From: Promethearchaeota archaeon | Lineage (GTDB): Archaea > Asgardarchaeota > Lokiarchaeia > Sigyniarchaeales > SOKP01 | Assembly: GCA_016839555.1 (NCBI GenBank) | Contig: JAEOUA010000012.1 | Coordinates: forward strand, 96,001 to 160,000 | DNA length: 64,000 nt | Reading direction: 5' to 3' | Part shown: in pieces, positions 178 to 60,865 of the stretch | Layout: each line of letters begins with the position of its first letter | Position numbering within the stretch: position 1 is the first letter of the stretch | Notes under the pieces: generated by a model | Told to the model about the DNA's origin: nothing | What the model saw: only the letters and a program-made list of their open reading frames with translations | Database searches by the model: none | Made by a program: the position numbers and the translations under genes

Positions 178-1140
178 TCATTTTTTTCGTAATGTTTCGA
201 AAGTTCCATATCCCCCTGAAAGATCATTAAGTTGAAATGATCCTATTGATTGAATCAAAATAGATTCATCACCCTCCTTTGTTTTAAAGGGAACAGGGAT
301 GATAGGGCCTGTTTGTGCTTTTAAGATATATTTTTCATTATTGAAGTCAATTAATTCCAACTCTGAACTTATTGGCATAATATTGTCTTTTCTGAACTGC
401 TGATCGAGAATCTTAATCGTTTTTAAAGGGATATTTTGTCCATTTTTGAAAATAAATCCTCCCGTAGACAGCCTTCCGTCATCAGATATTATCGCAGCAG
501 GATTAACCGCTAAATTTTCATTAAACCATATTACATAATATAACCAATTTCCCACTCCTGTCCAATCCCTTACACCATACGTATGATCCCTTTGTCCTAT
601 AATATCCTTGAAAGTATAACTTTTTTCTCCGATTTTTAAAATTCCAGAAATCTTCGCTATTTGCTCCCAATGTTTATCGCCTGCCTTTTTTCCTAGTTCT
701 AAAGATTCTTTTGACATATATTCACTATATTCGTATACCTCATTAATTGGATTAAAAGTTAAATCCATCTCAACTTTTTTTACTCCCTCAATTAATTGAG
801 GATTCTGACGGACATCCGGTAAATCTCCGGGATTTTTTACAATGATTAAATTTCCCTGGAACTTGTAATTCCATGTGCCGTTGTTATTCCATTGATGAGT
901 CATTCCAGCAACCGTTAGAGCTTCATTAAACTCTTTGATTTTTTTCTCTTGAAAATACCCTCCCGCAGAACCGTCAGGAAGAAACAGAAATAAAAAAGTC
1001 ATACCCTCTTGCTTATTTGGCTTGAATCCTAAACGAGAAACACCGCCTATTTTCTTATCCTTTGAATAAAATGCCAAATAATAAGATTCATTCCATTCTG
1101 GATGGTCATTAATCTGTTCGGGATGTATAATTTTTTCCAT
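178..1140 (-). CDS. Uncharacterised beta-rich protein, AttH/CrtC/tocopherol-cyclase-like (DUF7064/7065-like)
   Basis: WNESYY at the N-terminus, HWEQ and GQRDHTYGVRDW motifs; family name from recall. Confidence 0.55.
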   Translation of the reverse strand: MEKIIHPEQINDHPEWNESYYLAFYSKDKKIGGVSRLGFKPNKQEGMTFLFLFLPDGSAGGYFQEKKIKEFNEALTVAGMTHQWNNNGTWNYKFQGNLIIVKNPGDLPDVRQNPQLIEGVKKVEMDLTFNPINEVYEYSEYMSKESLELGKKAGDKHWEQIAKISGILKIGEKSYTFKDIIGQRDHTYGVRDWTGVGNWLYYVIWFNENLAVNPAAIISDDGRLSTGGFIFKNGQNIPLKTIKILDQQFRKDNIMPISSELELIDFNNEKYILKAQTGPIIPVPFKTKEGDESILIQSIGSFQLNDLSGGYGTFETLRKK

Positions 1141-1250
1141 AACAAAATCTCCATATTATCTCATAGAGGTAAGAACTATTCAATAATTTATATATTCAAA
1201 TGATGAGATCTTATTAAATCAATTTAATTAGGAAAAGTAAAAATAAAGAC

Positions 1251-3947
1251 TCATTTTATTCTAATCTGACCATCATATCCATTAATTTGGACCATTTGAC
1301 CGGTTTTGAATAATCTGCAAGCATTCGGAATGTTGGTCACCGCGGGGATTCCGTATTCGCGAGAAACAACCGCCCCATGCGATAAAATTCCTCCCGTCTC
1401 TGTAATTAATCCCCCTATTTTACTGAAAACGGTAGTCCATCCCGGATCTGTTCTCGGTACTACTAAAATCTCGTTTACCTGAACTTTTGGAATATCTTCG
1501 ATCTTTTGCAAGACGCGAATAAGACCTGTGACCAATCCTTGACTTGCCGCTATCCCTTGAAATACTTTACTACTTTCTTTGAAGTCTAGAGTATCATTAT
1601 ACTCCCTGTCACCAATTATAAATTTGGGAGGTAATTTGTTTTCATATTCAAAAAATTCTTTTTTTCTCTCGTTTATCATTGGTTTATATTTGTTAATTTG
1701 GGGGGAAGATATACCCTTTTCTATAATCTCCCTAATTTCCCTTTTTCGCAAAAAGAAAATATCAATGGGGTCATCAAGAAGATCTTTTTGCTGAAAAATC
1801 TCCCCAATATCCATAAACACCTTTCTATTGCGAGCGATCCATTTATCCAGATTATATCTCTGATTTTCCCGAAAGATAATATATCTTCTGCTAAAATTTA
1901 ATATAATAGATAAGATTTTCCATTTTAGATACCCCAAAAACTGAGACCTGATTTTTTTTTCCACTCGTCTTTCAATCAATTTTTTGAATTTTTCATTTTT
2001 TGCCTTTATTTTGTTTAATTTCTCTTCCTCCTCCGTTAGGAGGGATTGGATAATATCAAATACATATTCAGGAGCATCAGACCAGCGTGGATAATATGAC
2101 TCTCTCGTAAATCCCCTATCGCCTTGCTCTTTAATAAATTTATTAAATCGTTCCAGAAAGAGATTGATTTCTGGCTCCCGCTCTTCTAATAATCGCTGAT
2201 AAAGGTTTTTAGAATCTGTATTGAGAATAATAGATTTTAATTTTTCATCCTTTTGAGCGCTTATGGCAAGTTTATGTAATTGTTCATTTGTTTCGGTAAG
2301 TTTGTGATTTAATCCAGAGATTAAAATAGGGTAATATTTTACTGCATCTTCCTTTCCAATGAATCTTTTAAGGAGATATTGGACCATCAAATTCATACCG
2401 ATATTGTGGACAGGGATTCCATATCGAACTAATTTAAAATGATCTACCATTTTCTCATCTAAAGAGTTGGCTAATTCAAAAAGACTCTTGGCATCTCCCT
2501 TCTTATCTAACTTTTTCAACTCAGCATCAAAGAAGTCGCAAAATGGATTAAATTCTTCCTTGGTCCACTTTTCATACACCTTGTCGGTTTTCGTCATAGA
2601 TCCATTAGGATCGAAGATCCTGACCCGTAATTCTGCCACAATTCGATTTATTAAATGAAATGGTAAATCTTTTATGGTTTTTTTTCCAAATGGTCCTGCG
2701 CCTTTAGGAAAATAATTCAACACATCTTCATTACGCACAAATGTTGGAATTTCATTTTCTACCTTACGTTTTAAGACATTTAAATTAAAATATACATGTC
2801 CGTTATGGAGCTTTAGTAAGTTCGCCTGCATTTCTTTATAGCCCATTATTGAATTAAGGTGAATATTTACCACTTTCGTGAGCTGATCGCCAAGCAGATC
2901 GAAGAATAATGGGGTGACATTGTCATTCCAATAATCATCAGAATAGCCGCGCGAGAAAAGAATATCTTCTTCTTTCTTAAAAGAAGTTATTGGCCGTGAT
3001 TGTAATATAACAATTTGATTGGATTCTTCAATAGCCCATTCTATATCTTGTGGGGATTTGAAAGCCTGTTCAATATTAGCTCCTACTTCAGCAAGGTTTA
3101 ATATATCAGTATCCGTTAAAGAGGGTTCCGACCACTCATCTTCGGATAATCGAACCTTTTGTGTTCCACATTCATTCTCTACATCAGTGGGTTGGATAAT
3201 ATATTGTTTTCTCCCAATTTTTTTATTTAAAATCTCAAAAGAAGGGGTTTTTTTCTGCGTTTGTTTTAAAGTGAATTGATCTGGAGAACTAATTCCTCCC
3301 ACTACAGATTCACCCAACCCAAAATTAGATTCAATAAGCATTTCTGAGATTTCTGCTGAAAGCGGATTTTTGGTGAATAGAACGCCAGCAGCTTTAGCAG
3401 GAACCATTTTTTGGATAATAACCGCAATTTGAGCATTTTCATATGGGATATTATTTTTTAGTCTATATGCTATTGCTCTAGTTGTCCAGAGTGATGCATA
3501 GCATTCTTTAATATGATATATGATATCTTCAATACTTTTTAAATTCAGATAGGAATCATATTGTCCCGCAAAAGACGCAGATTCCAAATCTTCTGCGTTT
3601 GCTGAAGATCTCACGACATAACTATCGCAGGATAATGATTTATATACATTTTCAATTTCTGCCAATATTTCTCGAGGAATATCACCATTTTTAATGGCGG
3701 TTTGGATTTTTGCTGTAAATTTTTCAAGATTTTGATATTCAGAATCTTTAATCTCATATAAGGTGGTTTTAATAATATCATCGAGATCATTTTCCTTTAT
3801 AAATTTAGTATAGGCGTCTGTTGTAATACAAAAACCTTCAGGTACATTAAACTTATGTTTTATTAATTTTGCTAAATTGAAACCTTTTCCGCCTACTTTT
3901 CCACCTATTTGTTCATTAACACTATTTAAATTGATTGCGAAACCCAT
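1251..3947 (-). CDS. PEP-synthase-like / rifampicin-phosphotransferase-type phosphotransferase (ATP-grasp + central substrate domain + phospho-His domain)
   Basis: VGGKGFNL, VRSSANAED, SFAGQY, PQDIEWA, LQSRPIT; C-terminal TDPGWT..GGILSHGAVVSREYGIPAV. Confidence 0.85.
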   Translation of the reverse strand: MGFAINLNSVNEQIGGKVGGKGFNLAKLIKHKFNVPEGFCITTDAYTKFIKENDLDDIIKTTLYEIKDSEYQNLEKFTAKIQTAIKNGDIPREILAEIENVYKSLSCDSYVVRSSANAEDLESASFAGQYDSYLNLKSIEDIIYHIKECYASLWTTRAIAYRLKNNIPYENAQIAVIIQKMVPAKAAGVLFTKNPLSAEISEMLIESNFGLGESVVGGISSPDQFTLKQTQKKTPSFEILNKKIGRKQYIIQPTDVENECGTQKVRLSEDEWSEPSLTDTDILNLAEVGANIEQAFKSPQDIEWAIEESNQIVILQSRPITSFKKEEDILFSRGYSDDYWNDNVTPLFFDLLGDQLTKVVNIHLNSIMGYKEMQANLLKLHNGHVYFNLNVLKRKVENEIPTFVRNEDVLNYFPKGAGPFGKKTIKDLPFHLINRIVAELRVRIFDPNGSMTKTDKVYEKWTKEEFNPFCDFFDAELKKLDKKGDAKSLFELANSLDEKMVDHFKLVRYGIPVHNIGMNLMVQYLLKRFIGKEDAVKYYPILISGLNHKLTETNEQLHKLAISAQKDEKLKSIILNTDSKNLYQRLLEEREPEINLFLERFNKFIKEQGDRGFTRESYYPRWSDAPEYVFDIIQSLLTEEEEKLNKIKAKNEKFKKLIERRVEKKIRSQFLGYLKWKILSIILNFSRRYIIFRENQRYNLDKWIARNRKVFMDIGEIFQQKDLLDDPIDIFFLRKREIREIIEKGISSPQINKYKPMINERKKEFFEYENKLPPKFIIGDREYNDTLDFKESSKVFQGIAASQGLVTGLIRVLQKIEDIPKVQVNEILVVPRTDPGWTTVFSKIGGLITETGGILSHGAVVSREYGIPAVTNIPNACRLFKTGQMVQINGYDGQIRIK

Positions 3948-46457: not shown

Positions 46458-48170
46458 TTATATTAATTTTAAATATTCGATATAATCCCTTAAATTACAT
46501 TTTACGATTTCGAAATTTATTAATTCAGAACCAAATAAATGAACAATTTTTTTAATTACTTGGGTTGCATCCTTTTTTGGAAATATTTTATATTTCTCAT
46601 TCCTACGCTCTTCAATAATTATTACCGAATCAAGATTAAATAATGTTTTTAGAGTCTCTTCCGTTGGATAATTTAATTCAATTTTTATGATTTCTCCCTC
46701 TTGAGGAACTTGGCATGTCAACTCGTCTACAATTCCAACCTCTGTTTTTTTGTCAGTTATAGTAATTACTTTGTCGCAATTTTCTACAAACTCTTCAGGC
46801 CCTTCTACCAAGAATATTACATGAAATTCTTTTTTAATATTATCTAATGCGTTTTTGAATTCCTTATATTGTAATCTGTTAAATATTTCTTCTTGCATTG
46901 AAAACATTATGATATCAGCAGATTGTATAAGAGCTCTTGCGATTGAAAAAAGTAAGAAGTCTATTGGTTCTAAATCTTTTACTTTTTGATTTTCTTTAAA
47001 TGTTAATCCTGTTAATTGGAGTATTTTTTTAATAAAATCCCGTTTCTTCTTGAATTTTTTTAGAAAAGTAATGAATTTCCAAAAATATCCTTTAGTAATC
47101 AATTCATCGATTAGAGTTGATAATCCAGCTTCTTGTATTTTAGTTCTTAATTCCTCATCCTCAAAACTCGATTCAAATTTAATCTTTATGTTAGATTTTA
47201 TTGCATCCTTGACTTTCTGGTTGGAAATTTTTGGTTCGATTGGTTTAGGTAACACGAAGATTCTCTTTTGATCTTCTTGAGAGAGTAATTGTACAAATTT
47301 TCCAAAAAATTTTATAGTTCCAGAGAAAACTTGCTCTTTACCCGCTATAGCATTATATAATTTCATTACATTTGCCTTTTCAATAAATTCCTCTTTTTTG
47401 GTATTGAATAAAATTCCTATTGATTGCCCTCTATGTACTTTAAGCGAGATATTATTAATTAATTGCCCAGTTGAAACTTTTTTTAATAATAAGATTTGAT
47501 ATTTTTTATAATACTCCACCAACCTTAATAGCTTTAGAATATAATTAATTAAGTGGTCTATTATATCTGTGATATGAGGTGGGTTTAATTCCTCCCAATT
47601 TCTTAATTCCTCAAAATCCAAAAAAGTTTCTAAGTTGATAATTTTTAAAAGGTTTCTTGAAAAGTAAAAAGTAGGTTTTAAAGGATACTTTTCAAGATCC
47701 ACCTTTAATTCCGTAGAAAACTCAGGAAAATATAGTATGATCTCCCTAAAATATGGAATATTATCGATAGCATAATTTTCAAATCTTTGGTCTATTAATT
47801 TTACCTCCATATCTAATATTTTTAAATGATATTGGAATTCCCGTTCTATTAACTCATCAATCCGATTAATAATTTTCATTGGACTTATCAACCCGTCATC
47901 ATCAAAATCGGGATCTATCAAAACATCATTAAAATCAACTTCCGTCTCAATTGGGGTATATATTTCTAAGATGGGCATTGCTTTCTCCAAAACATCCTGA
48001 TTAGGAAAGAATAATATCTCAATATAGCTCCTTTTATAATCCAAATCCAAAATGGTTGATACTCCGAAAGTATCTTTTTTATAAATCATCCAATAATGCT
48101 CAGAATGTCTGATAGTAGTATTTATTTTTTCCCGAATTAACTCTAATTCTTCCTTTCTAGTTCTATTCAA
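46458..48170 (-). CDS. UBC/RWD-like domain(s) fused to a degenerate ABC ATPase
   Basis: DLEKYPLKP..LRNW..NPPHITDII; then ISLKVHRGQSIGIL with no Walker A lysine motif, and SIARALIQSADIIMFS in place of Walker B. Confidence 0.6.
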   Translation of the reverse strand: MNRTRKEELELIREKINTTIRHSEHYWMIYKKDTFGVSTILDLDYKRSYIEILFFPNQDVLEKAMPILEIYTPIETEVDFNDVLIDPDFDDDGLISPMKIINRIDELIEREFQYHLKILDMEVKLIDQRFENYAIDNIPYFREIILYFPEFSTELKVDLEKYPLKPTFYFSRNLLKIINLETFLDFEELRNWEELNPPHITDIIDHLINYILKLLRLVEYYKKYQILLLKKVSTGQLINNISLKVHRGQSIGILFNTKKEEFIEKANVMKLYNAIAGKEQVFSGTIKFFGKFVQLLSQEDQKRIFVLPKPIEPKISNQKVKDAIKSNIKIKFESSFEDEELRTKIQEAGLSTLIDELITKGYFWKFITFLKKFKKKRDFIKKILQLTGLTFKENQKVKDLEPIDFLLFSIARALIQSADIIMFSMQEEIFNRLQYKEFKNALDNIKKEFHVIFLVEGPEEFVENCDKVITITDKKTEVGIVDELTCQVPQEGEIIKIELNYPTEETLKTLFNLDSVIIIEERRNEKYKIFPKKDATQVIKKIVHLFGSELINFEIVKCNLRDYIEYLKLI

Positions 48171-51100
48171 TTTTTGGAACCTCCATTGCTTTGTATCTAA
48201 AATATTCTTCCATTTTACTATCAGATTGATTTATTCCCAATATAGAATTATCTCCAAACTCTTCTCCAACTTCCTTCCTGAGTTTAATTTTAGGCAAATT
48301 AGATAAAATTATATAGTCTGTACCTACCTTATTTTCCAGTGCTTTTTTAATTCCTTCTATTGCTTCTAATCTTTCTATGGCATCATCTTGGGGATCATAG
48401 AAAAATAATTCTAATGATCTTCCACCGCCTGGGAGTTGAGATAATAATTCTCTAGGTGTTCCGAAATCTATCATACCACGCCCTCTACCAAAAATAACAA
48501 CTTTATTACAAAACTTAGATTCTTCGGGATAATGGGAAATAACTAATAAAGTGGTATTAAATTTTTCATTAATTTTAGTAAGAGATAGCCATAATCTTTC
48601 TCTCACCACAGGATCTAAACCACTCGTAGGTTCATCAAGGATACAAAAAACTGGATTATGAATTAAAGACATTGCAATGCTTACCCTTCGTTTTTCCCCA
48701 CCAGATAAGTTCTTTAATTTTTCATTTATTTTATCCTCAATTTCAAGACTTCTTAAGGTTCGTTTTGCTTTGCTAACTATTTCTTTTTCAGTCATTCCAT
48801 ATTGTTTTCCAAAATAGATTAAATTTTGAAGAGTAGTAAAGTTCAAATATATTTTTCCTAAATCTTGTGGGACATATCCATAGATCGATCTAAATTTTCT
48901 CTTATTTCTTTTAGCATCCATGCCATAGATTTCGCATATTCCTTTATATTTATGCATTCCTAAAACAGCTTTAATAAAAGTAGATTTTCCAGCGCCACTT
49001 TCTCCTAATATACCCAGAATTTCACCATGTTCTATTTTTAAGGAAACATCATTAACAATCAATTTTCGTCTTATATAGATGTTTAAATTTTCACAATATA
49101 AGGTGGGAAATTTCTTCAAATAGTCTCTACTTAGTTTATCTTTGAAACCGAAAGTAGTTCTTATTTTTTTGACTATATAATTTTTTAAATAATAGAAAAT
49201 ATTAATCAAAATTAATAAAACTAAAAGAAGGCCTTCAGATATGGATAAAAAAGCTAATAAATTATTCCATGGGGTAGGATCAAAGGCTTGATCATATCTT
49301 ATTTCATCAATAAATACTAATGCATAAGCGATATTTCTTAGATCTCCCCCAAAAAAAGCATCATCACCAACTCCACCCGTTGTTTGGCTAATGCAGAATC
49401 GAAACCATCTCACTAAATTTTTTATATGTTCTGGCTGCAAATTATACTCATATAAGGCAATTGATCCAAAATAGGTTCCTAAAAATGAAGATGGTAAATC
49501 CAAAAGCGATGAGAGATATGGTATTACATTAAAACCTCCATCATTAGATTGTGCATTTTTGAGAAATTCCATCGCAGCCATTTCTGATAATGGTTCAATA
49601 CCCAAAAAATTTAGCAATGTTAATCCATAATATGTCGAAATTACATCCGAATGAAACCCATAAAATATTCCAAATCCTCCGTCTGCATTTTGAGAGGAAA
49701 CAAGCCAATGTCTTAAACTTATTGGATTTATGAGGGTTATAGCTTTCAAGCTTGTCAAACTATATACCGCCCAATAAGTACTTTCAATAGTAGATATATT
49801 TGAGTTTACAACATCTAATAAAGGTTCATAAGCAGCACCGAAATAAGAAATAATTATATCCAAGTCTTCAGTTAACTTAAAACCTCCATCGGGATTTTGT
49901 AAGGAAGCTAAATATCGTGCTGTAGCAGTTTCATTATTAATCCAGGTTCTAGTATAAGGTAAGAATAATTGACTTATATAAACTGCACAATAAGTAGAAA
50001 AAACACTAGAATTATATCCTGGTTGAGAACCATAACCTCCATCTACAACATTATAGCATGAATTCACGAAATTTGCTATGCTATTTATATTTATAAATAA
50101 TGGAAATTTAGAACCGGCATAATTATAAATAGATTTTACTCCTAAATAATTACTCAATAGAGAAATCTCCCCAATTAATCCATTCATCGCTTGATGATCA
50201 TATAACCAATTATAATAATTTATTTTTACCGTATCACTTATATTTAAGGAAGGTGAAGCATTATTTTCCAATAACCGGATTGAATTCATGGCAGCCCATC
50301 CTGATTTAAAGTCTGACGTTATATTTGAAAAGGAATGAGATCCGAATCCTCCATCAGTATTTTGACAACTAAGTATATAATTTTTAGTACGATTTTCAGA
50401 TGATGGTGTACTATTAAAATGATATATTGACCATAATGAATAATAGGTAGAACTTATATCAGAAAGACTGGCACTTGATGGAGTTGCTCTATATCCTCCA
50501 TCTAATATATTATATAAAGTAGTAAAATATGTTTTAATCCAAGATTCTTCTGTAGAATTATAAGTATTATTCAACTCTAAATAAGCTTTAATTCCAAAAT
50601 AAGTTGTTTCTGCCGTAATAGTATATGTACGATTAGAAAACCTATAATTCCCAAAAAATGCGATTGTATGATTTCCTAACTCTTTTATATAATTTGTTAG
50701 ACTCTCGTTATTATTTTCCAAAATAGAATTAAAATTTAATAATTTTGCTAATCTTATTCCATAATACGTGGAAATTATATCTGCTTCTTCCGCCTCTTCA
50801 TTGTATTTAAAACCATAGCCATTTTCTGCTAAAGAATCCTTAAGATACTCCTTTATTCTATAAATTCTAATTTGATGAGCGGGATTTTCTAAAAATGAAT
50901 CGCTTAAAAGATTAATTGTTTGTATTGCTTTATAAGTGGAATACATATTGCCTAAACCATTTATATCTGAATATGAACCGTCATCATTCTGTTTTTCGAA
51001 TAAATAATCTAAAAAAAATTGTTTCCTGAAAAAAATTAAATGCGGATTCTTATTAGGATTTATTAAACTAGAATTACTAAATGCGATACTTGAAAAATTA

Positions 51101-51336
51101 ATAGAATCAATCGCTCTATAGTTTGCTACTATAGTGGGTTCAACAAACAAACGACTTGAAGGATTTTGATGGGTATATGCAAAATAGAACATATCAGTTT
51201 TATAAGCCTCAACCTCATTTTCTTCGAAATATATTATAAACTGAGAATTAATTATGAAATAAGTTACTAATTGGCTAAAATAAAGCGCAATAATTATTAT
51301 AACATACGTTAATTGGCGTTTCTTTCTTCTATCCAA
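48163..51336 (-). CDS. Membrane protein: TM - prenyltransferase/squalene-cyclase-like repeats - TM - ABC ATPase
   Basis: About 10 QNxDGGF-type repeats; GESGAGKS, LSGGEKRR, LDEPTSGLDP, ISH. Confidence 0.85.
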   Translation of the reverse strand: MDRRKKRQLTYVIIIIALYFSQLVTYFIINSQFIIYFEENEVEAYKTDMFYFAYTHQNPSSRLFVEPTIVANYRAIDSINFSSIAFSNSSLINPNKNPHLIFFRKQFFLDYLFEKQNDDGSYSDINGLGNMYSTYKAIQTINLLSDSFLENPAHQIRIYRIKEYLKDSLAENGYGFKYNEEAEEADIISTYYGIRLAKLLNFNSILENNNESLTNYIKELGNHTIAFFGNYRFSNRTYTITAETTYFGIKAYLELNNTYNSTEESWIKTYFTTLYNILDGGYRATPSSASLSDISSTYYSLWSIYHFNSTPSSENRTKNYILSCQNTDGGFGSHSFSNITSDFKSGWAAMNSIRLLENNASPSLNISDTVKINYYNWLYDHQAMNGLIGEISLLSNYLGVKSIYNYAGSKFPLFININSIANFVNSCYNVVDGGYGSQPGYNSSVFSTYCAVYISQLFLPYTRTWINNETATARYLASLQNPDGGFKLTEDLDIIISYFGAAYEPLLDVVNSNISTIESTYWAVYSLTSLKAITLINPISLRHWLVSSQNADGGFGIFYGFHSDVISTYYGLTLLNFLGIEPLSEMAAMEFLKNAQSNDGGFNVIPYLSSLLDLPSSFLGTYFGSIALYEYNLQPEHIKNLVRWFRFCISQTTGGVGDDAFFGGDLRNIAYALVFIDEIRYDQAFDPTPWNNLLAFLSISEGLLLVLLILINIFYYLKNYIVKKIRTTFGFKDKLSRDYLKKFPTLYCENLNIYIRRKLIVNDVSLKIEHGEILGILGESGAGKSTFIKAVLGMHKYKGICEIYGMDAKRNKRKFRSIYGYVPQDLGKIYLNFTTLQNLIYFGKQYGMTEKEIVSKAKRTLRSLEIEDKINEKLKNLSGGEKRRVSIAMSLIHNPVFCILDEPTSGLDPVVRERLWLSLTKINEKFNTTLLVISHYPEESKFCNKVVIFGRGRGMIDFGTPRELLSQLPGGGRSLELFFYDPQDDAIERLEAIEGIKKALENKVGTDYIILSNLPKIKLRKEVGEEFGDNSILGINQSDSKMEEYFRYKAMEVPKIE

Positions 51337-54990: not shown

Positions 54991-56121
54991 TTATAGAATG
55001 GACTTTCTATTCTGAAATTTATGAAGTCTCTTTAAAGCTTCTAATTTTTCTTGCTTTTCTAAACGAGACTGATCAATGGCATCTTTTAATATTTGTGCGC
55101 ATTTTTCCATTCTTTGTAGATTAACCGGATAAGGGATACCATCTTTTCCTCCTACTGCATAGCTATATTTTGCTGGATCCTTCCAACTTGGAGCTTCTCC
55201 CCAAATAAATTCTGAGATTAAAGCTAAGGCCCTAATCATTCCAGGTCCTAAACCTTCAATTTTCAATAAATCAGTATAGTCGTTTAATCCGATTTGCTTT
55301 GCCATATCAACGCTTTCCCATTTTAGAGTGAAAGGAATTGGCATATCGAGACGAGGAATCTTTTTTACCTTAATTGCTTTTTCTGGCATAGCAAAATCAT
55401 AAAGGCTTTTTTGTGAAGTGTCTTTTAACCTATGGAGATATCTTTTAATTCTCTTCGCTCCTTCATTAATTAAATCTAGAGACACCTTTCGAGATTCATG
55501 ACTTTTGGAACTTACCATATCCAAAACTTTATTTTTATAGACTTCTGTTGTAATATCTTTATGAGGATCATCAATAAAACTCTTAAGTCCTGAATGCCAA
55601 TGATATCTTCTCGCTTTCTTAATAGTTCCATCAAGACCTTGTTGAACAATCCCCCATTTATCTTCCGAAACAATCATGAGGTGATGGTATAATGAAAAGC
55701 CATCTTGCAGAGCAACATTATCAATCTTAGCAACTAATCGACTAATTTCGGCCAAATCATTCACATTATCTTCATTATAATCTAAAATATTAGCATTTTT
55801 ATTTAGATGCTCCCTAACTTTTGTAGCATTTTTCCCTTTTCCACCCGCTATAATTAATCCATGCTCCTTAGGCTTTATTATTTGCTTGAGAATACCTCCC
55901 AATACCGTTGTGCATCCGCTTGAATGCCAATCAAAGCCTAAAATACACGCTAGCCCTTGAAACCAATAAGTGTCAGATAAGCGCTTAATAATTCCATTGG
56001 GCCCCTCAAAATCATATAAGATATCAAAAATAGGTTTTCCTAAGGATATCATCCTCCTCAATAACCAGTGAGGCGCCTTAGAGCTATGTAATGGAAGCGT
56101 TGCTATCCCTACTTTACTCAT
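54991..56121 (-). CDS. DUF763 domain protein
   Basis: LPLH..KAP.WL, GFDWHSSG.TT, QDGFSLYHH, ARRYHW, YAVGGKDG.PYPV. Confidence 0.88.
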   Translation of the reverse strand: MSKVGIATLPLHSSKAPHWLLRRMISLGKPIFDILYDFEGPNGIIKRLSDTYWFQGLACILGFDWHSSGCTTVLGGILKQIIKPKEHGLIIAGGKGKNATKVREHLNKNANILDYNEDNVNDLAEISRLVAKIDNVALQDGFSLYHHLMIVSEDKWGIVQQGLDGTIKKARRYHWHSGLKSFIDDPHKDITTEVYKNKVLDMVSSKSHESRKVSLDLINEGAKRIKRYLHRLKDTSQKSLYDFAMPEKAIKVKKIPRLDMPIPFTLKWESVDMAKQIGLNDYTDLLKIEGLGPGMIRALALISEFIWGEAPSWKDPAKYSYAVGGKDGIPYPVNLQRMEKCAQILKDAIDQSRLEKQEKLEALKRLHKFQNRKSIL

Positions 56122-57129: not shown

Positions 57130-58074
57130 ATGGATTTTTTTACACATTTAGTTATTGGAGCACTTGTATATGCGATTTTCTTCAAGGGAATTACCTGGAA
57201 TTACTTATTTTATGCAATTTTTTTCGCAATTTTACCTGATTTAGATATTTTCCTTTCCCCTTTAAAACGGAAATTCAAATCTGTTTATCTTGAGCATCGT
57301 TCGGGTTCCCATTCTTATGTTATAGGGACTATTGCATCCGCATTAATAGGTGGTATATATTCTCTTTTCACAAACCAGTCATTTTTGATTATTTGGATGA
57401 TTGGAACAATTTTTTATGGAATTCATGTATCTCTTGATTTACTCACGACTACAAAAATCCCCTGTTTTTATCCCTTTTCCAAGAAGGAATTTTGTTTTTA
57501 TGCGGAAAAGGCTGGGAGCTCATTTACTTTAATAATTTCTTTGATCTTTCTAGTAAATATAGCAATAGTATATTTTAATAGCCCAAATAAATCAACTTCC
57601 TTTTTAGTAATTAATATCTATACTTATTTTTTCCTAATTTACTATCTCTATCGGATAATAACAAAATTCTGGATTGATCATCATTTAAATGAAGATCAGA
57701 AATACATTCCGGGAATTTTACCCATTTATTTCTATATTTTTGAAAAAAAGATAATTGACAATACATTATCATTTTCTCTTAAGAAAAAGTCTCATTTTTC
57801 ACGAACTAAATTAATTTATAAGAATAATTCAAACTTAACACCTCAGGAAATGATGCTTTTCTCAAGAGGAATGGAACTCTGTTCAGAAGATTATTATTTG
57901 GCAAAATGGACTGCATTTCCAGAATTTTTAAGAATGGATGGTATATTTTCTATTAAATTTTTCTTCTTAGAACCTATGACTCGCTTAAAAGCGATGTATC
58001 TTCAAATTGATTTTGATGTAGATACTGGACAGATATATAGTTTAAATCAAAAGTTTGGACCAATTAAAACATGA
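57130..58074 (+). CDS. Membrane-bound metal-dependent hydrolase (YdjM-like)
   Basis: MDFFTH, LPDLD, HRSGSHS, HVSLDLLT. Confidence 0.85.
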   Translation: MDFFTHLVIGALVYAIFFKGITWNYLFYAIFFAILPDLDIFLSPLKRKFKSVYLEHRSGSHSYVIGTIASALIGGIYSLFTNQSFLIIWMIGTIFYGIHVSLDLLTTTKIPCFYPFSKKEFCFYAEKAGSSFTLIISLIFLVNIAIVYFNSPNKSTSFLVINIYTYFFLIYYLYRIITKFWIDHHLNEDQKYIPGILPIYFYIFEKKIIDNTLSFSLKKKSHFSRTKLIYKNNSNLTPQEMMLFSRGMELCSEDYYLAKWTAFPEFLRMDGIFSIKFFFLEPMTRLKAMYLQIDFDVDTGQIYSLNQKFGPIKT

Positions 58075-58108
58075 TTTTTCTTTCAGAATTTCCTTCTAAT
58101 CATTATTA

Positions 58109-58237
58109 TTATGTTGCTAAGACATGTTTTTTTAAATTATATTTTTCCACTAGATATTTATAAAACCCAAATATTTTTTTCAAATTTAATGCCCCTAACT
58201 TCTCAATATGGATGTCAAAATCAAGATTTTCTTCCAT
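58109..58237 (-). pseudogene. Truncated 5' gene fragment after the Trp leader (possibly trpE-like)
   Basis: MEENLDFDIHIEKLGALNLKKIFGFYKYLVEKYNLKKHVLAT then stacked stops; shares DFDI(H/N)IEK with the gene start behind the trpA fragment. Confidence 0.45.
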
Positions 58238-58373
58238 TCTTTTTCATTCATTTCTTTTTTTCCTTAATTTTTATTAAAATTAATACAATCTCTTGTTTTA
58301 TAGATTAAAATTATAAAAAATATAACAGAAAATTATTCAATATAAAAATTCATAATTAGCCATTGCACACGTT

Positions 58374-58427
58374 CTATTCGTGCCAACGCCAAGCCCAAAA
58401 CCAAGTTTCGTTAAAAAAATAGGTCAT
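58374..58427 (-). CDS. Putative Trp attenuation leader peptide MTYFFNETWFWAWRWHE (17 aa)
   Basis: Four TGG codons within seven codons; local GC spike; hairpin spans the last Trp codons with the stop in its loop. Confidence 0.75.
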   Translation of the reverse strand: MTYFFNETWFWAWRWHE

Positions 58428-58752
58428 TTTTTTTATTGAAATATTATATCATATTCTTGGTTTGTTTATTCTATGGAATAAAGGTAGCTTGAATTGATAT
58501 TTTATTAAATAATAACAATTTTAGTTGATGATGATTTTTTAAAATGTGATTACAATTATCAATTAAATTAAAATCAAAGATTTACAAAAAGAATGCAAAT
58601 AATTAAATAAATTCTTTATTATATATGAAGAAATCTTAAATTTAAATATCCAAAGGAACTTTATGCGAACTCTAGAGTTCATAGTTAAAAATTGAACTAC
58701 TAAAACTGTTTTTACATAAAATTAAAATATAGAAATATGAGGTGATAAATGA

Positions 58753-59427
58753 ATGTCTTATGTATATATGAAAGCTTTGGAAAATAAAGCCGAAAAATAT
58801 GATAAAGGAATAAAACTGTTAACATTAGGTAAGTTGCCTAAAATTAAGCAAGAGATTGTTGATAATTACATTGAAAAAAATAATATTTTATTAGATATAG
58901 GTATGGGAACGGGAACATTTACAATTTTATGTGCTAAAAAAGGAGCTCAAGTGACAGGTATTGATTTCTCAGAAAAAATGCTTGAAATAGCGAATAGACA
59001 CATAAAAGATGAAGAATTAAATGGAACAATTAATATTATTAAAATGCCTATTGTTAATTTAGATAAACAATTTTCAGATAATTCATTTGACAAAATTACG
59101 TCGATTTTGTGTTTTAGCGAATTATATCAAAAAGAACAAGATTATGCTTTAGATCAAATTGCGAGGATACTGAAGGATAATGGCGAATTTATTTTAGTTG
59201 ATGAGGTCAAACCTAAGAATATATTGAAAAAGATACTATATTTTATGATACGAATACCAATTTCACTCATAAATTTTCTAAAAGCTCATATTTCTACTAA
59301 ACCATTAAAAAATTTTGAGGAAAAAATTAGTGAACATAATTTTCAGGTAATAGAAGAAAAATTATACTTACTTGACACATTAAAACTTATACGAATAAAA
59401 AAAAATTTAGCTAATAAGGAGGATTAG
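58753..59427 (+). CDS. Class I SAM methyltransferase, corrinoid-protein-associated (CpaM-like)
   Basis: MSYVYMKALE..KYDKGIKLLTLG N-terminus, LDIGMGTG; abuts the HgcAB-like gene. Confidence 0.8.
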   Translation: MSYVYMKALENKAEKYDKGIKLLTLGKLPKIKQEIVDNYIEKNNILLDIGMGTGTFTILCAKKGAQVTGIDFSEKMLEIANRHIKDEELNGTINIIKMPIVNLDKQFSDNSFDKITSILCFSELYQKEQDYALDQIARILKDNGEFILVDEVKPKNILKKILYFMIRIPISLINFLKAHISTKPLKNFEEKISEHNFQVIEEKLYLLDTLKLIRIKKNLANKED

Positions 59428-59429
59428 AA

Positions 59430-60521
59430 TTGAGTTTAAAATCAACATTAAAGTTATTTCTAGCATATTTTTTTCGCTTTGTTGGCTTTCCCGTTGAGCC
59501 AGAGTTAAGGAAAATTGGGAATCCCAATCAGCACAGTCCCGTTCTAGTTACTGCAAATTTTAATTTAACAGTAAAAAGACTGTTAAAGAAATTGAAGGGA
59601 TTAGATTGTTATCTTCTAATTGCCCCTTCGAATGGAATAAATGTGTGGTGTGGAGCGTGCGGAGGTGATTTTACTACAGATTCCGTAATCTCGATTATTA
59701 AAACAAGTGGGATAGATCAGCTTGTTTCTCACCGAACATTAATTCTACCTCAATTAAGCGCTTCAGGTATTGATCCTACAATCTTAAAAAAAGAATTAGG
59801 TTGGGATGCAAAATTTGGAACTGTATATGCAAAGGATATTAAAGAATATTTTAAAAATAATTTTAAAAAAACAGACACTCAGAGGAGGATACGATTTCCT
59901 TTAAAAAAAAGACTTGAAATGGCGAATGCATATTATTTCATCTTACTCATACTATTCTCAATCCCATATTGGATTTTTGCAATATTTTTCTCAAGTTTAG
60001 ATTGGATACTTTATTTAGATACACTATTAATCGGTTTTATTATCGTATATGGCTCTCTTGCCATATTACCGAGCATCCCCTCTAACTCAGGGAAAGCAAA
60101 AGTATTGATATTTGGAGCTGGAATCCTTATCCTTATAGTTCTCTTATATATGTTTGTTTATAACAATTTATTTTATTTAATTTGGAATATTATTACTGTC
60201 TTATTTGTAACCCTCGTTATGGCAGAAGATTTTCATGGAATAACACCAATATATAAGAGTGATCTAGGAGAGAAATCGTGGAAAAAGGGAAAAAATAAGA
60301 TGAAGATGATTTTCGGGACATTTAAACTTCAACCTTATGGAGATCTCAAATTAATTAGGGAAGAATGTATTGGCTGCAAAGTATGTATAGATGTTTGTCC
60401 AAGGGAAGTCTATATGTTTAATGAGATAGACAAAAAAGTTGATATAAATAACCCAAATAGATGTATTAATTGCAATGCATGTATTAAGCGATGTTTAGCT
60501 CAATGTCTTAAAATTGTTTAA
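59430..60521 (+). CDS. HgcAB-like fusion (corrinoid domain + TM helices + 2x[4Fe-4S] ferredoxin)
   Basis: SPVLVTANFNLT, GINVWCGACGG, LILPQLSASG; CIGCKVCIDVCP, CINCNACIKRC. Confidence 0.85.
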   Translation: MSLKSTLKLFLAYFFRFVGFPVEPELRKIGNPNQHSPVLVTANFNLTVKRLLKKLKGLDCYLLIAPSNGINVWCGACGGDFTTDSVISIIKTSGIDQLVSHRTLILPQLSASGIDPTILKKELGWDAKFGTVYAKDIKEYFKNNFKKTDTQRRIRFPLKKRLEMANAYYFILLILFSIPYWIFAIFFSSLDWILYLDTLLIGFIIVYGSLAILPSIPSNSGKAKVLIFGAGILILIVLLYMFVYNNLFYLIWNIITVLFVTLVMAEDFHGITPIYKSDLGEKSWKKGKNKMKMIFGTFKLQPYGDLKLIREECIGCKVCIDVCPREVYMFNEIDKKVDINNPNRCINCNACIKRCLAQCLKIV

Positions 60522-60619
60522 ATTATAATGTATCTGATATTCTAATAGTATTAAATTCATAAAACTTTTAATATAGAAAACAATTAAGATTTTTTCTATA
60601 TTTATATCAAAATCCATAA

Positions 60620-60865
60620 CTAATTCTCCTTCTTTATAGTAGTTTTTATACGAAAAACAAATTTTACCATTTTAATTTCCATTTTTTGGAAATCTTTTAA
60701 ATTTTCCTTAATAATATGAACCATAGCAGAGCCTATAATAACTCCATTAGCTCCCGTGCTTATTATCGTGCGTGCATGTTCGGGTTTTGAACTACCAAAA
60801 CCAATAAATATAAGTAATTTCTCTTGAATCTTATGTTTAATTCTCTGAATAATAAAGGGTTGAAA
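60620..60865 (-). pseudogene. trpA: Tryptophan synthase alpha C-terminal fragment
   Basis: Start-less frame ..IQRIKHKIQEKLLIFIGFGSSKPEHARTIISTGANGVIIGSAMVHIIKENL..* matches the TrpA GFGI..PE..ADGVIVGSA pattern with decay substitutions. Confidence 0.8.

Follow-up and report, generated by a model that had tools for sequence, protein, structure and literature searches.

A tryptophan-codon-rich leader that outlived its trp operon in a Lokiarchaeia genome, and the family of candidate attenuators to which it belongs

The window, by which we mean the whole stretch of 64,000 nucleotides analysed here, which belongs to an Asgard archaeon of the Lokiarchaeia, or Promethearchaeia, is AT-rich (about 29% GC) and comes from a metagenome-assembled genome (MAG) of 3.74 Mb in 12 contigs that is 92% complete. 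On its minus strand, direct reading gives a leader ORF of 17 codons plus TAG at 58374..58427, which runs from the ATG at 58427 to the TAG at 58376..58374 and encodes MTYFFNETWFWAWRWHE. Codons 9, 11, 13 and 15 of this ORF are TGG (58403-01, 58397-95, 58391-89 and 58385-83), which is the arrangement of four alternating Trp codons in a short ORF that the original prediction had reported. The 64-kb window has a single copy of the four-TGG pattern TGGNNNTGGNNNTGGNNNTGG, which is absent from all 100 dinucleotide shuffles of the window, and the 3.74-Mb genome holds four copies where base composition would lead one to expect 0.026.

The end of the ORF overlaps a hairpin, P1 (58356..58392, minus strand), that is part of the minimum-energy fold. 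The 5' arm of P1, UUGGCGUUGGCACG, contains Trp codons 3 and 4, the UAG stop codon lies in the loop, and the 3' arm is CGUGUGCAAUGGC; the helix includes G-U pairs and one bulge. The 30 nt on the 3' side of the hairpin are 57% U and include a U5 run, and thus the hairpin with G-U pairs, a TAG in its loop and U-rich RNA behind it is found in the fold as it had been proposed. Compared with shuffled sequences, the window hairpin shows no excess stability (z = -0.37 for this single sequence), and it is therefore the conservation of the hairpin in homologues, described below, that argues for it. Searches against Rfam, which included RF00513, other leaders and T-boxes, gave no leader match in the window at E values up to 10 and no match in four homologous loci at E values up to 1, and a tRNA scan returned nothing at the leader locus.

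Most of the genes that flank the leader are unrelated to tryptophan. A YdjM-like gene (57130-58074, plus strand) is convergent with the leader, and a methyltransferase gene (58753-59427, plus strand), a CdhD-like/ferredoxin gene (59430-60521, plus strand) and a DUF763 gene (54991-56121, minus strand) lie around it. Farther away, an ORF of 1057 amino acids (48163-51336, minus strand) has a long N-terminal repeat region and, in its C-terminal translation, the Walker A and signature motifs of an ABC ATPase; more ABC and permease genes follow it.

Pieces of trp genes are also present on the strand of the leader. A 42-codon ORF (58109..58237, minus strand), whose start lies 136 nt downstream of the leader stop codon and which reads MEENLDFDIHIEKLG...KKHVLAT followed by its stop codon, is homologous to TrpE residues 1 to ~38 (E = 6.8e-9 and 68% identity to residues 1-37, with zero internal stops), and the deletion breakpoint falls just past ...KKHVL, at about 58118. 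The 3' remnant of trpA (60620..60850, minus strand) comprises the last 76 codons and the native stop codon, comes directly after the stop codon of an Rce1-like gene, and is 56% identical to TrpA residues 204-279 (E = 4e-27) with no internal stop. The trpA remnant that the original prediction had placed 2.2 kb from the leader on the same strand is thus real, and its position is upstream of the leader rather than downstream. Two nt after the trpA stop codon begins a second fragment of a trpE start, MDFDINIEKI, of 10 codons (60588..60617, minus strand); it agrees with the trpE start of relative G021 at 27 of 30 nt when compared by eye and is too short for statistics. The junction of trpA stop and trpE start is the same as in the intact trpA-trpE operons of relatives. 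The second trpE start implies either that the ancestor had a trpA-trpE junction together with a separate leader-trpE unit or that a rearrangement of the locus preceded the deletions. In relative G005, trpA and the leader are separated by a gene that has no relation to those found at that place in the window.

The runs that match the locus are all marine-sediment metagenomes, with no RNA run among them. A contig from the probable source run spans 57600-58402 with zero differences, and so the junction of stub and leader is contiguous in that run; as this contig probably has the same source as the MAG, it is not an independent confirmation. The DNA contigs that cover the locus all belong to the probable source study, and among them the trpE stub is bridged in the probable source run only. 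Several other contigs from the same sediment runs match only the 50-nt core of the leader (58358-58407), with 1-5 differences, which indicates that other Lokiarchaeia in the sediment sample carry the leader core.

A DNA search of relatives located the core, ACUUGGUUUUGGGCUUGGCGUUGGCACGCAUAGAACGUGCGCAAUGGC, in genera g1, g4, g5, g6, g9 and g10, and 16 distinct leaders of this kind (type 1) were identified. They are 21-26 codons long, mostly 23, and carry four alternating UGG codons within their last ten codons. Their N-terminal parts are unrelated sequences, while the C-terminus reads ...TWFWxW(R/C/P/S)W(H/R)(A/V/E) up to the stop codon, typically ...TWFWxWRWHA. The original prediction had also raised the possibility that the leader senses aromatic amino acids in general, with regard to its three Phe codons and one Tyr codon, but these lie mostly in the N-terminal part that is not conserved among the homologues and hence give that idea no support. 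A second type of leader has the pattern WxWxWxWxW (e.g., MATVNNWAWRWQWPWRWR before its stop codon), occurs in about 27 genomes and has up to six UGG codons. At all 21 loci that were fetched, both types included, trpD, trpE, trpA or trpB2 lies 145-510 nt downstream, so that the check that had been suggested at the outset, to look for W-rich upstream ORFs before the intact trp genes of relatives, came out in favor of the proposal. The operons behind the leaders are trpDCFBAEG, trpEG, trpAEG or trpB2, and since four different genes occupy the downstream position, synteny alone cannot explain the linkage to trp genes. The type-1 leaders thus form open short ORFs rich in the cognate codon, with four UGG codons in the last 10, and leaders are positioned on the same strand upstream of trp genes at the 21 loci; in the window, only the trpE stub occupies that place.

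These data refute the simplest alternative, namely that the ORF arose by chance in an AT-rich spacer or is a fragment of a decayed longer coding sequence. The failure of the window hairpin to stand out on the window sequence alone would be in keeping with a chance ORF, but the four-TGG pattern did not arise in any shuffle and the 16 homologues are all short ORFs before trp genes rather than pieces of a longer one, which leaves this explanation a negligible probability. A RiPP precursor and a C/D-box or other small RNA were likewise considered as identities for the element and were dropped because the homologues are short ORFs that always precede trp genes.

Several members of the family deserve separate mention. 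In the closed genomes of a sister family, shorter leaders ending in ...KAWPWH, ...KAWPWHKL, ...ITWPWHLL or ...FMAWHSL at the stop codon lie upstream of trpB2 and trpD (L177:about 1050-1200, minus strand; L182, minus strand; L178:about 1110-1260, plus strand; L179:about 940-1100, plus strand). Behind each of these leaders lies a 13-bp hairpin, GCUCUAAUUAGCA..UGCUAGUUAGAGC, which the stop codon abuts in leaders of the ...AWPWH kind, and a U4-U5 run comes next in three of the four loci. The sister family shares with type 1 the principle of an ORF end, a hairpin and a U run in succession. Two copies of the leader, one before trpD in G010 (G010b, L020:2395-2460, plus strand) and one in G054 (G054:C21:79626-79647), end in ...TWFCICCWHA; UGU (Cys) takes the place of two of the four UGG codons in these copies, leaving two Trp codons, which is a point against the mechanism proposed below; the U-G-N pattern and the pairing in the RNA persist. 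In G021, a gene for an AsnC/Lrp-type HTH regulator (L018:1782-2273, plus strand) is located directly upstream of the leader and trpDCFBAEG, and close homologues of this gene occur in the window genome (G000). It is possible that this regulator adds a layer of transcriptional control.

The reading frame of the leader appears in the homologues as something that selection has kept open. Across the 12 variable codons that precede the Trp block in 14 homologues, the leader frame has 0 stop codons and the other two frames have 23 and 23, which indicates that the leader ORF is maintained by selection and argues against an RNA that is purely a protein-binding site. This count bears on the possibility that the UGG repeats, spaced 6 nt apart, are sites for a Trp-activated, TRAP-like RNA-binding protein and that the ORF is incidental. 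The spacing of the UGG triplets is indeed regular, and a further conserved AUGG follows the hairpin. Against this, an ATG and an open frame are found in every homologue, and a search for the TRAP family PF02081 in 26 genomes of the order returned nothing, although it did pick up the Bacillus subtilis control. We therefore give a TRAP-like protein only a very slim chance of being the sensor.

The leader RNA in the homologues has a consistent anatomy. A TATA box lies ~55-60 nt before the ATG of type-1 leaders, from which the transcript would be predicted to begin ~30 nt before the mini-ORF. An element in the 5' UTR, CAAAAUCAAGUUG, is complementary to AACUUGGUUUUGG, which comprises Trp codons 1 and 2, and the two can form a helix, P0, of -9 to -16 kcal/mol. 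The GC-rich hairpin P1 has the same layout in the homologues as in the window, where Trp codons 3 and 4 belong to the 5' arm and the loop carries the stop codon; 95-96% of its pair cells are paired in 15 homologues. For P0 and P1 jointly, 89% of pair cells are complementary, compared with 28-47% when the partners are slid against each other. U makes up 40-63% of the 30 nt behind P1, where runs of U2-U6 occur. Farther on lies P3 (UUAGAAUUUCU / AGAAAUUCUAA), a second hairpin; of the 15 intact homologues, 12 can pair 9-11 of its 11 positions, and ten of these have a stretch of five or more U, mostly U6-U10, 19-22 nt past the 3' arm of P3. From the U6-10 run it is a further 45-60 nt to the trp start codon, and the last 40-70 nt ahead of that codon show little conservation and do not pair with the leader. 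Covariation, which the original prediction had named as a check, is not significant in P0 and P1: two pairs show double changes, a number that 73 of 500 shuffles also reach. The core is too conserved for this test to be informative, and the compensatory changes seen in G014, G009 and G015 are isolated.

The type-2 leaders (L049, L054, L038, L039 and G000:C5 near 558050/557960) are arranged differently, in that the 5'-UTR element pairs with RNA 10-20 nt past the stop codon. The helix of these leaders therefore encloses the whole mini-ORF. The complementary pairs come in three different versions, AUGGUUUAG/UUAAACCAU, AUAUGAUUUA/UAAAUCAUAU and AAUAGUCC/GGACUAUU, which looks like real covariation when the sequences are compared by eye.

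Another question is whether the conserved part of the leader is the RNA or the peptide. One could imagine that the Trp-rich peptide is itself the product, in the manner of a RiPP or antimicrobial peptide, or that it is an arrest peptide that senses free Trp in the exit tunnel as TnaC does. The last ten residues are conserved and end right at the stop codon, in the fashion of an arrest peptide, but the positions other than Trp vary (A/V/D/K/I, R/C/P/S, H/R and A/E/V) and conservation tracks the RNA pairing. The peptide varies where the RNA is unpaired, for example with A/V/D/K/I between Trp codons 2 and 3, and since variation is confined to such unpaired positions, the conserved peptide is largely a shadow of the UGG codons and the helices. 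Moreover, the neighbors are always trp genes, no modifying enzymes or exporters were found near the leaders, and a TnaC-like sign of regulation, on at high Trp, would be wrong for biosynthetic genes. We consider a function of the peptide as such to be highly improbable.

When set against this anatomy, the window copy appears partly degraded at its 5' side and downstream of P1, and well preserved in its core. A TATA-like box, TTTAATAAAATAT (58497..58509, minus strand), lies ~30 nt upstream of the 5'-UTR element and matches the TATAAATA box of the homologues in position, which makes it a putative promoter. The remnant of the 5'-UTR element, E0 (AAACCAAG; 58456..58463, minus strand), is complementary to CUUGGUUU, which consists of Trp codon 1 and the next Phe codon, and the two form the window version of P0. 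E0 is displaced and weakened in the window: 27 nt separate its end from the ATG, where 6-14 nt are usual, and the P0 duplex (-10.4 kcal/mol, compared with -9.4 to -16.4 in intact homologues) has a large internal loop. By our reading of the alignment, the segment at 58428..58470 (minus strand) is the disrupted 5' part of the ancestral leader: the start codon of the homologues has its aligned counterpart in the ATG at 58462..58460, and the next codons are ATA TAA. From this ATG to the ACU-UGG there are 46 nt instead of the 39 nt of the homologues, so that it is out of frame. The shift of frame and the TAA together explain why the 17-codon ORF starts at a downstream ATG. P3 persists as a degenerate remnant (58283..58354, minus strand; arms UAUGAAUUUUU / AGAGAUUGUAU) in which 7 of 11 positions are able to pair, and the U6-10 run of the homologues is absent. 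The core of the window leader agrees with the 15 intact homologues at each of their 24 invariant columns and differs at two of the 41 columns that are conserved in at least 13 of the 15.

The state of the trp genes in the genome fits the description of an attenuator that has outlived its operon, as the original prediction put it. Only the 42-codon trpE stub follows the leader, and searches of the 92%-complete MAG with a full set of Trp proteins (tblastn) did not find trpD, trpC, trpF, trpG or trpB1. An intact trpB2, 78% identical to that of a relative, is retained in the same genome (C5:557847..556522), and 133 nt upstream of it lies its own Trp-rich leader of type 2 (MAINKISFWNAQWPWRWQNR up to the stop codon; G000:C5:557981-558043, minus strand). 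It seems probable that this genome makes Trp only from indole, with the retained trpB2 serving indole salvage and the leader system still in use at trpB2. Of the six other genomes of the genus, two have TrpE; three, which are 93-98% complete, yielded neither TrpE nor a type-1 relic in our searches. The genus is thus losing the synthesis of tryptophan from anthranilate and keeping trpB2.

The absence of internal stop codons from both the trpE stub and the trpA remnant suggests that the operon was lost recently, and the window copy looks like the product of a recent deletion in which decay is just beginning. Because the loss appears recent, the survival of the leader core is not evidence that its function has been kept. 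It might nevertheless be asked whether the relic has a function of its own, either as a trans-acting small RNA or peptide or through a Trp-dependent antisense transcript that runs into the convergent ydjM-like gene. Such a function would account for the invariant columns having stayed unchanged despite loss of the operon and for the persistence of the TATA-like box, read-through would be antisense to the gene at 57130-58074, and trans functions of a trp attenuator have a precedent in the work reported in PMC7298713 and PMC7968998, as far as those accounts go. However, decay has spared the trpE stub and the trpA remnant just as much, such that the conservation is accounted for by a recent deletion; degeneration has already set in at E0, P3, the U run and the ancestral start region; and no type-1 relic was found in the three same-genus genomes that gave no TrpE. 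For these reasons we see only a slim chance that the relic retains a function. We believe instead that the window element is the surviving 5' regulatory module of a deleted trp operon, and most likely a relic of a ribosome-mediated Trp attenuator.

What is the mechanism by which leaders of this family, which are homologous, linked to trp genes, kept open as ORFs and conserved in their RNA complementarity, might regulate the genes behind them? We propose that the pace at which a ribosome passes the UGG codons of the mini-ORF serves as a readout of how much charged tRNA-Trp is available. At low Trp, a ribosome held up on Trp codons 2-4 would keep P1, and P0, open and RNA polymerase would continue into the trp genes. 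At high Trp, the ribosome would reach the stop codon and leave, P1 would form, and transcription would end within the U tracts, short of the first trp gene. In the window, the module would now control nothing beyond the 42-codon trpE stub.

Both the stalling and premature termination through direct occlusion of P1 are steps that we infer, the output step in particular since no antiterminator was found and covariation was not significant. To mimic a ribosome on the leader, its footprint was masked in folds of 14 leaders, with the ribosome placed on Trp codon 1, 3 or 4 or on the stop codon; no switch between terminator and antiterminator emerged, and P3 was unaffected by the masks. The freed 3' arm of P1 pairs with the downstream RNA no better than with shuffled RNA (z -1.1 to +1.4), and the same holds for the freed 5' element (mean z +0.6). 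A classical four-segment attenuator was therefore rejected, as neither the masked folds nor the pairing tests show mutually exclusive structures. Direct occlusion is favored because P0 and P1 are the only structures that a stalled ribosome can affect.

Termination in archaea relies on oligo-U together with factors and not on a hairpin that abuts a U run. In the window genome, runs of T5 or longer stand at 51% after the stop codons of long ORFs versus 19% inside ORFs, an enrichment after genes that fits oligo-U termination. The U runs right after P1 are short (U2-U6), which is a limit of the model of direct occlusion, and the best run, of U6-10, lies ~100 nt farther on, past P3, at a site that a stalled ribosome has no evident way to affect. 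In addition, at Trp excess a ribosome on the stop codon would itself cover P1, and the model thus needs either fast release of the ribosome or pausing of the polymerase.

An alternative is that the same sensor, a ribosome stalled on UGG codons, has a different output and acts on mRNA stability (e.g., by blocking 5'-to-3' decay), on translation or on processing, with no premature termination. The lack of a terminator/antiterminator alternative would be expected in that case, the very 5' end of the transcript is sequestered in P0, and P3 with its U6-10 run is conserved even though it is seemingly beyond the reach of a ribosome on the leader. On the other hand, conservation is low in the 40-70 nt ahead of the trp start codons, which are not paired with the leader, and the overlap of the ORF end with a hairpin, followed by U-rich RNA, occurs in both families of the order. 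We regard an altered output as unlikely, though it carries appreciable weight. On balance, we lean toward the view that the W-rich mini-ORFs of Lokiarchaeia are true ribosome-dependent sensors of Trp that set the premature termination of trp transcription, with the stalled ribosome occluding the hairpin that holds the stop codon and with no antiterminator.

Leader-peptide attenuation is a textbook mechanism of bacteria and needs a ribosome that follows close behind RNA polymerase. A full-text literature search found no publication that describes either leader-peptide attenuation or Trp leaders for archaea, the Asgard archaea included, and the leader family described here points to bacterial-style sensing of Trp by the ribosome in archaea. 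If this is true, the closest prokaryotic relatives of eukaryotes would use coupled translation as a metabolic sensor, and leader-peptide attenuation would exist in the Archaea in a form built unlike the bacterial version. The leader family also provides a concrete, mutable element with which to probe coupling and termination in Asgard archaea. What the window itself adds to the family is the relic state: the locus may be viewed as an evolutionary snapshot in which the regulatory front end has been caught after deletion of the operon and before decay and, if our reading is true, it would mark the module as a self-contained unit, able to persist after its operon has been deleted.

Several known systems resemble these leaders in part. 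The Bacillus TRAP system has a Trp-responsive 5' leader with repeated triplets, (G/U)AG, whereas the repeats of the archaeal leaders are in-frame UGG codons within an ORF that is selected to remain open, and TRAP was not found in the 26 genomes that were searched. TnaC is also a Trp-responsive leader with a conserved nascent peptide that ends at the stop codon, but its genes are on at high Trp, which is the opposite regulatory sign; we set TnaC apart on the basis of this logic and not on that of its defining residues. Leader peptides for Trp and other amino acids in Actinobacteria and the poly-Cys uORF attenuators of mycobacteria use runs of cognate codons in a tiny uORF as the sensor, and some of them, as outlined in these reports, also do without a canonical terminator (PMC1262725; bioRxiv 10.1101/834739). 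Those attenuators are bacterial and, in the form in which they are presented there, have sequences and structures unrelated to those of the archaeal leaders. The trpL of Sinorhizobium meliloti gives rise to a trans-acting RNA, rnTrpL, and a trans-acting peptide, peTrpL (PMC7298713, PMC7968998), and is, by these accounts, an example of an attenuator module with a life apart from its genes, which bears on the window relic. Unlike S. meliloti trpL, the window relic is partly degenerate, and a trans function for it is purely conjectural.

The closest parallel is with enterobacterial trpL (RF00513). In both cases, a short ORF with Trp codons near its end immediately precedes genes for Trp biosynthesis, this end lies within a region of RNA secondary structure with a U-rich stretch behind it, and reading by a transcription-coupled ribosome is presumed. 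The archaeal leaders depart from trpL in that they have no detectable 2:3 antiterminator and carry four alternating UGG codons, or up to six in type 2, where trpL has two adjacent ones. Moreover, the host is an archaeon, and the Trp codons of its leaders lie inside helices, with the stop codon in the loop of a hairpin.
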